Part shown: positions 62,765-63,336 of the stretch, one piece after another
Position numbering within the stretch: the stretch's first letter is position 1
Layout of the letters: every line of letters begins with the position of its first letter
Source of the DNA: Escherichia coli
GTDB taxonomy: Bacteria; Pseudomonadota; Gammaproteobacteria; Enterobacterales; Enterobacteriaceae
NCBI RefSeq assembly: GCF_013122565.1
Contig: NZ_CP053258.1
DNA: 64,000 nt
Reading direction: 5' to 3' (one strand)
Made by a program: the position numbers and the translations under genes
Notes under the pieces: generated by a model
Databases searched by the model: none
What the model was told of the DNA's origin: nothing
The model's input: only the letters and a program-made list of their open reading frames with translations

Positions 62765-63336
62765 TCAGGGCGATTCATTGTTCTCATTCGCCAGAAATTT
62801 TCTATAAATGGTAGAAACGCCCACATCAAAAATCAGTGCAATACGCTGTCTTGATTCTCCGGCCTCGAGTAAACGTCCAATCTGTGCCCACTGTTCGGTA
62901 GTCAACTTAGGACGGCGTCCACCTACTCTGCCTTTAGCACGAGCTGCAGCCAGCCCTTCCCTGGTACGTTCAACTATCAGTTCGCGTTCCATTTCAGCCA
63001 GGGCACCCATGACATGAAAAAAGAAACGGCCCATTGGGGTACTGGTATCAATACTGTCAGTCAGACTTCTGAAATTCACGCCGCGCTGGCGCAACTCTTC
63101 TATCAGAGTAACAAGATGCGCATACTGCGCCCCAACCTGTCCAGCTTCCAGACAACCAGTGTGTCACCTGCCGATAGTGTCCTGAGCAGCTTTTTCAGCC
63201 CTGGTCTGTCGGACTTGGTGCCACTGATTTTATCCTCAAAAATCCGCTCACATCCCGCGCAGTTCAGTGCATTACGTTGCAAATCGGTGTTCTGGTCATT
63301 TGTTGACACGCGTACATAGCCAATAAGCATGATCAT
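62765..63336 (-). pseudogene. Serine DNA invertase (Hin/Gin/Pin family) interrupted by a frameshift
   Basis: ORF 63103..63336 gives the catalytic N-terminus (GYVRVSTNDQ, VWKLDRLGRS); ORF 62765..63094 gives the rest (GVNFRSLTDSIDTSTPMGRFFFHVMGALAEMERELIVERT) in another frame; restoring one c in atgcgc-atc near 63108 would join them. Confidence 0.8.

Follow-up and report, generated by a model that had tools for sequence, protein, structure and literature searches.

A frameshifted Gin/Pin-type invertase gene in the tail-fibre inversion module of a P2-like Escherichia coli prophage

Introduction

Has a prophage whose DNA invertase gene is split into two reading frames lost the ability to switch its tail fibres, or is the split an error of the assembled sequence? 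The question is raised by a 64,000-nt stretch of an Escherichia coli genome (assembly GCF_013122565.1, contig NZ_CP053258.1), to which we refer as the window. A preliminary description held that a Hin/Gin/Pin-like invertase in it had been inactivated by a single-base frameshift, and that either the tail-fibre segment is locked in one orientation, fixing the host range, or the frameshift is a sequencing or assembly error.

Results

The invertase gene and its lesion

The gene is indeed split into two ORFs on the minus strand, 63103..63336 and 62765..63094. Translation of this strand from 63336 to 62765 yields MIMLIGYVRVSTNDQ...DRLGRSMRILLL followed by two consecutive stops, after which the sequence is out of frame; the second ORF, in another frame, encodes ...RQRGVNFRSLTDSIDTSTPMGRFFFHVMGALAEMERELIVERT.... 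The start codon annotated in relatives is the ATG at 63330 (MLIGYVRVSTNDQ...; MLIGYV...) rather than 63336. Complete E. coli genomes contain 1,352 records that match a 701-nt query covering the locus; the full-length ones listed (H1-H29) all span 702 bases. Exactly one gap is found against FACU 2024 (99.6% identity) and ATCC 8739 (99.3%), the closest among the matches listed. The gene has 566 nt here and 567 nt in every intact relative.

Intact relatives read AGT ATG CGG CAT CTT (S M R H L), where the window has AGTATGCGCATCTT; their ATG CGG CAT CTT is represented by ATGCGCATCTT. On the coding strand a G of CGG has been lost, corresponding to one C of a plus-strand CC pair; this dinucleotide is not part of a homopolymer. 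The lesion had been placed at about 63108; the missing base lies between 63119 and 63120, and it is the premature TGA that occupies 63103-63105. It had also been proposed that an extra C before AT would repair the frame. The restored protein (...RSMRHLVTLIEELRQRGVNFRSL...) is the same either way, but the relatives identify the lost base as a G of CGG. The coordinates of the locus and of the surrounding prophage are collected in Table 1.

Table 1. Features of the invertase locus and of the adjoining prophage late region, in window coordinates
Feature	Position	Strand	Remarks
Host ybjL flank	53555-55240	plus	
ogr	55476-55694	minus	
D	55785-56885	minus	
U	56882-57367	minus	
Tape measure T	57364-60441	minus	
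E/E'	60434-60870	minus	
Tube FII	60925-61440	minus	
Sheath FI	61450-62622	minus	
Gin/Pin-type serine DNA invertase pseudogene	62765..63330	minus	566 nt, against 567 nt in intact relatives
Out-of-frame remainder	62765..63118	minus	rest of catalytic domain, helix E and HTH_7 DNA-binding domain
N-terminal remnant, translatable	63103..63330	minus	75 aa (71 native residues plus ILLL); TGA stop
1-nt deletion site	between 63119 and 63120	minus	codon 71, CGG to CG; from alignment with relatives
Fis-dependent recombinational enhancer, predicted	63230..63312		approximate; from homology with Hin only
26-bp crossover site	63386-63411		invertase-proximal end of the segment; minus reading TTCTCCCAAACC AA CGTTTATGAAAA
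Silent alternative C-terminal tail-fibre cassette Hv'	63413..63756	plus	gp53-like C domain (PF21882, Gp53-like_C)
Alternative tail-fibre assembly gene G', 5' part	63760..64000	plus	cut by the window end; PF02413 (Caudo_TAP) in relatives

The truncated product retains the nucleophilic serine, located inside GYVRVSTNDQ (residues 5-14) in agreement with the Y-x-R-V-S-T-x-x-Q motif, and lacks residues 72-188. The Resolvase family PF00239 is assigned to an identical 75-aa product of Logan contig SRR29598430_308. The 89-aa C-terminal fragment carries PF00239 and PF02796 (HTH_7), and Resolvase and HTH_7 are likewise found on the intact orthologues. With translation ending at residue 75, helix E and HTH_7 do not share a polypeptide with the catalytic domain. 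PMC4513852 describes the hydrophobic residues of Hin helix E as controlling tetramer formation. Because the stub ends before helix E and the DNA-binding domain and is missing the remainder of the catalytic domain, we infer that it is inactive.

Restoring the frame gives a 188-aa protein that is colinear with phage Mu Gin (PDB 3UJ3, E = 1.8e-90, residues 1-182); a second Mu Gin structure, PDB 4M6F, aligns with an E of about 1e-90. The restored frame, EQWAQIGRLLEAG, contains Q150, R153 and L154, which are the Fis-contact residues with an offset of -1 from Hin numbering. In Hin these are Q151, R154 and L155 of helix 1 of the DNA-binding domain, and they are uniquely conserved in DNA invertases (PMC3798978). 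The restored protein aligns end to end with Gin and is 84% identical to PinE, so its resemblance to the invertase family is not due to chance. Two lineage-private substitutions, A125E (62958) and P180L (62793), lie 3' of the frameshift. Inactivation by a single-base frameshift, as originally proposed, is thus borne out by the one gap against intact relatives and by the match of the restored protein to Gin. The locus is a pseudogene of the Hin/Gin/Cin/Pin family and not a functional member.

A genuine deletion or an artefact

Single-base indels are the commonest assembly error, and the deleted allele is seen in none of the 608 matching records (0 with 100% identity) from 5,426 complete E. coli genomes. 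One could therefore suspect that the invertase is intact in the real genome. Other assemblies make this very improbable. Logan contig SRR11451224_54, a 40.8-kb product of an independent short-read assembly, was found by an exact-product look-up of the C-terminal fragment and is 100% identical to the window from 63316 to 52765 (10.5 kb). It shows no mismatch and no gap, and so shares the deletion, A125E and P180L. SRR11451224 may represent the source reads of the window's own assembly; in that case an assembly artefact would be excluded, while a clonal laboratory mutation would not. The deletion is also present in the assembled contigs of two further isolates, which differ from the window by SNPs. 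SRR29598430_308 combines the deletion and A125E with the ancestral P180 and one additional SNP in the tube gene, while GCA_041679425.1 combines them with three N-terminal changes (A25V, K39R, and one synonymous). The pattern is nested, with the deletion and A125E common to three genomes and P180L confined to the window lineage.

Features of the window itself also speak against an error. The deletion site lies outside any homopolymer, the private amino-acid changes sit downstream of the frameshift, and over about 33 kb aligned with E. coli PK8568 there is no further coding indel; of the remaining gaps, one is an nfsA frameshift belonging to PK8568 and two are intergenic. We note separately that the artM-artJ intergenic G-run at 39216 is one G shorter than in PK8568, the sole homopolymer-length difference seen. 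Because at least three non-identical genomes carry the deletion together with nested changes, it is genuine and inherited, and the sequencing or assembly error envisaged at the outset is rejected.

Recoding would offer another route to an intact enzyme: if transcription slipped at the deletion, or ribosomes underwent a programmed -1 frameshift there, the full-length protein could still be made. A -1 shift directly after CGC would give exactly ...R H L V T.... Nevertheless, neither an X XXY YYZ slippery heptamer nor a homopolymer run is present in AGT ATG CGC ATC TTG or in AGTATGCGCATCTTG, the sole nearby stem is a 4-bp GCGC-N5-GCGC hairpin, and about 600 relatives all encode the protein in one frame. 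On these sequence grounds recoding is rejected as very improbable. The same hairpin bears on how the mutation may have arisen. At 63118-63130 the deletion perfects a palindrome, changing GCGC AGTAT GCGGC to GCGC AGTAT GCGC, which makes a quasi-palindrome (template-switch) correction conceivable as the mutational origin; with a stem of only 4 bp, this is speculative.

Frequency of broken alleles

The deleted allele is rare. Among 50,697 phage records, none of the 18 matching entries was 100% identical, and exact-pattern scans of IMG/VR viral contigs, JGI metagenome contigs and species-representative genomes returned no copy. The 77-aa product that would start further upstream (MIMLIGYV...) had no match in the product look-up, while the 75-aa and 89-aa products did. 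In the collections searched, the deletion was found solely in the three carrier lineages. Klebsiella phage KP12 was suspected of carrying the same deletion because of its equal match length; its invertase is intact, and another indel at 63643 compensates.

Broken copies of the gene are nonetheless common. The 90%-identity clusters that contain the two fragments include many partial products arising from other lesions: P0018 (89 aa, starting MGRFFFHV) on 171 contigs, P0019 (119 aa, starting at M70) on 92 contigs, and P0003 (81 aa, an N-terminal piece) on 27 contigs. These are long contigs, which argues for frequent breakage of the invertase gene.

Complete E. coli genomes supplied about 630 homologous records for A125E and about 420 for P180L, and neither change occurs in any of the full-length matches among them. 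Both private changes would fit relaxed constraint, though a dN/dS test of decay would need more than the two non-synonymous and zero synonymous changes seen. A125E introduces the residue of gamma-delta resolvase at this position (RTNEG motif), and is thus not obviously damaging.

Prophage context and spread

The forward direction of the prophage is the minus strand, and it is integrated next to ybjL. The order of its late genes is the P2-like H-G-[invertible G'-Hv']-invertase-FI-FII-E/E'-T-U-D-ogr, with H and G located beyond the window. All of the downstream late genes (55476..62622) are full length and as long as those of the relatives. The window ORFs are colinear with the prophages at the same site in FACU 2024, ATCC 8739 and PK8568, with matching Pfam families. 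The E/E' tail-chaperone locus is intact, consisting of a 100-aa ORF (60568..60870) and a 39-aa GpE-family ORF (60434..60553) that overlaps the tape-measure start; it is a normal programmed-frameshift locus, unrelated to the frameshift in the invertase.

Outside the prophage, two insertions distinguish the window from PK8568. The first, of 2.5 kb (33022-35576), lies in the ybjQ/ybjP interval and holds two minus-strand ORFs, of which 33177..34277 (366 aa) has a weak pentapeptide-repeat Pfam match and nothing else, and 34240..34959 (239 aa) has no match in Pfam, NCBIfam or PADLOC. The second, of 3.5 kb (40226-43735), lies between artJ and rlmC and contains a sulfatase-like gene (40269..41750), scoring under the NCBIfam cut-offs, and a PTS sugar transporter IIC gene (42105..43448; NF009550, 964 bits).

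Divergence is distributed unevenly between prophage and host. Set against GCA_041679425.1, the window shows 7 differences in the 7,937 prophage positions between ogr and the crossover site (0.088%), versus 22 in 2,476 (0.89%) in the adjoining host flank. The corresponding values for PK8568 are 2.6% in the prophage and 0.81% in the flank. The prophages of the two carriers are roughly 10 times more similar than their flanks, so the frameshifted prophage would be much younger than the divergence of the host flanks. This suggests that it moved between E. coli lineages recently, after the mutation arose, and such movement would imply that the invertase is dispensable for the phage. The estimate is based on 2.5 kb of host flank, and local recombination of that flank is an alternative explanation for the gap between flank and prophage divergence. 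Related P2-like prophages, 3.9% diverged, occupy the same ybjL-adjacent site next to a ybjL flank that is 19% diverged from the window; at this distance their hosts probably belong to another enterobacterial genus, with Klebsiella suggested by the hosts of the phage records.

Crossover site, enhancer and invertible cassette

The 26-bp crossover site is the sole such site in the window, where 0.01 would be expected by chance. It is identical to that of the intact relatives; in four of these, an inverted partner lies inside tail-fibre gene H at a distance of 1.8-1.9 kb, and the window's own partner site would lie past 64000. ATCC 8739 holds a different cassette, and its similarity to the window ends at 63412, the first base after the crossover site. 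The proximal Fis site of Hin lies about 100 bp from hixL (PMC3798978). Neither the region of the predicted enhancer nor the gene's first 210 nt differs from the intact relatives (100% identity). The cis elements visible in the window are unchanged.

From 63413 on, the cassette and the start of the assembly gene share 99.2-99.5% identity with the same cassette in six relatives. The window and GCA_041679425.1 hold different invertible cassettes beyond the crossover site. The partner site of GCA_041679425.1 (locus positions 8071-8096, in the tail-fibre gene) reads TTCTCGCATACC TT CAATTGGGAGAA, and its inner half-site has three changes beside the core with respect to the usual GGTTTGGGAGAA; decay of the site or a different allele of the cassette may account for them.

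The cassette is also encountered in other settings. In GCA_014904115.2 (locus positions 9307-14112) the same cassette and assembly gene, 99.5% identical to window positions 63413-64000, adjoin a much more divergent 187-aa invertase. There, beside bioA-D/uvrB, the tail-fibre gene to which the cassette is joined is lambda-like (929 aa, phage_tail_N), with GpJ upstream. P2-like and lambdoid prophages have the invertible module in common. CP012744.1 (locus positions 10001-11745) carries the same cassette without any invertase, amid resistance-type genes (APH, MFS/TetR, Multi_Drug_Res, Pterin_bind) and IS elements, with a second, 115-nt copy of the cassette start at 15888-16002.

Comparison with known inversion systems

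The closest parallel is the PinE/P segment of the K-12 cryptic prophage e14. The restored protein is 84% identical to PinE (155/184), a 29-nt stretch at the crossover site (CTTCTCCCAAACCAACGTTTATGAAAATG) matches exactly and lies at the same distance upstream of pinE as here, and the layout is the same, with the invertase followed by a silent tail-fibre C-terminus and an assembly gene on the opposite strand. The two differ in what is broken: pinE is intact in e14, a defective element at icd, whereas the prophage at ybjL is P2-like, with its visible late genes intact and its invertase disrupted.

Gin of the Mu G segment, Cin of P1 and Hin of Salmonella belong to the same family of Fis/enhancer-dependent small serine invertases as the restored protein, with the same role, the switching of alternative tail-fibre C-termini. 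Unlike these proteins, the polypeptide considered here is truncated at residue 71. The segment measures about 1.8-1.9 kb in relatives and is shorter than the G segment, at about 3 kb, and the C segment, at 4.2 kb (PMC12529663). Intact orthologues are found in the P2-like prophages at the ybjL site: WP_000905031.1 (FACU 2024), WP_000905035.1 (ATCC 8739) and WP_000905033.1 (PK8568). They share the order ogr-D-U-T-E-FII-FI-invertase-invertible segment, and the 701-nt region is 99.3-99.6% identical. They differ from the window in having the extra G (567 nt, 188 aa), A125 and P180, and are annotated as "recombinase family protein".

Is the switch locked?

With its own enzyme lost, the prophage would be unable to flip its own tail-fibre segment. 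The stricter claim, that the segment is frozen with one tail-fibre type and a fixed host range, stands only in part. The cis-encoded invertase is certainly dead, and deletion of pinE is reported to lock the e14 P segment (PMC12529663). The diverged partner half-site of GCA_041679425.1 (TT CAATTGGGAGAA vs TT GGTTTGGGAGAA) also fits a decaying switch. On the other hand, the window's crossover site is identical to that of e14, and the 5' region that by homology bears the enhancer is the same as in intact relatives. The e14 P segment is inverted by PinQ, PinR and PinE alike, each encoded by a different cryptic prophage, so that several Pin-type invertases can act on one segment in trans within one E. 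coli cell (PMC12529663, which also cites the classical Gin-Pin complementation work). Many E. coli genomes have more than one homologous invertase locus, with up to six places per genome in the 1,352-record match set. Given intact cis elements, an e14-identical site and trans-acting Pin invertases, a resident invertase could flip the segment.

Two contig ends offer weak hints in the same direction. SRR29598430_308 starts one base past the crossover site, with C in place of the window's G at 63413; in relatives the base preceding the partner site is C, as expected of a flipped junction, and this might point to the flipped orientation. The end of SRR11451224_54, at 63316, falls within the conserved 5' part of the invertase gene; a break there would be expected if the genome held a second similar invertase gene. 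The carriers' information on orientation consists of that one base past the site in SRR29598430_308, a different segment in GCA_041679425.1, and a contig end before the site in SRR11451224_54. Taken together, we consider a strict lock possible, though somewhat less probable than not.

Discussion

The locus is best interpreted, with a probability of about 0.88, as the tail-fibre inversion module of a P2-like prophage at the ybjL site, the Gin/Pin invertase of which carries a genuine, heritable 1-nt deletion in codon 71. The deletion leaves the 75-aa stub as the only possible product of the gene; the stub would be inactive, and the prophage would be deprived of self-driven inversion. Any remaining inversion would need an invertase supplied in trans, such as PinE of e14, PinR/PinQ of Rac/Qin, or the enzyme of another P2-, Mu- or P1-like prophage. 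If no such enzyme were present, the segment would stay in the orientation it had.

What we describe is an ordinary prophage pseudogene of the well-known Gin/Pin-type tail-fibre switch, an already known system. It is mildly interesting in that the prophage with which the null allele travels is otherwise intact and apparently mobile. The allele might go beyond mere decay, with loss of the phage's own invertase being tolerated or even favoured on a still-active P2-like phage, an idea that we regard as unlikely. If it were true, the phage may borrow resident Pin-type invertases, or a fixed orientation of the tail-fibre or prophage surface protein may benefit phage or host, as may be compared with the adsorption block by StfE2 of e14.

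For annotation, the locus should be recorded as one pseudogene, and neither as two small recombinase genes nor as an assembly error. More generally, loss of the cis-encoded invertase does not mean that the switch is locked, as crossover sites are shared among prophages. Host-range predictions for this prophage should not presume self-driven tail-fibre switching.
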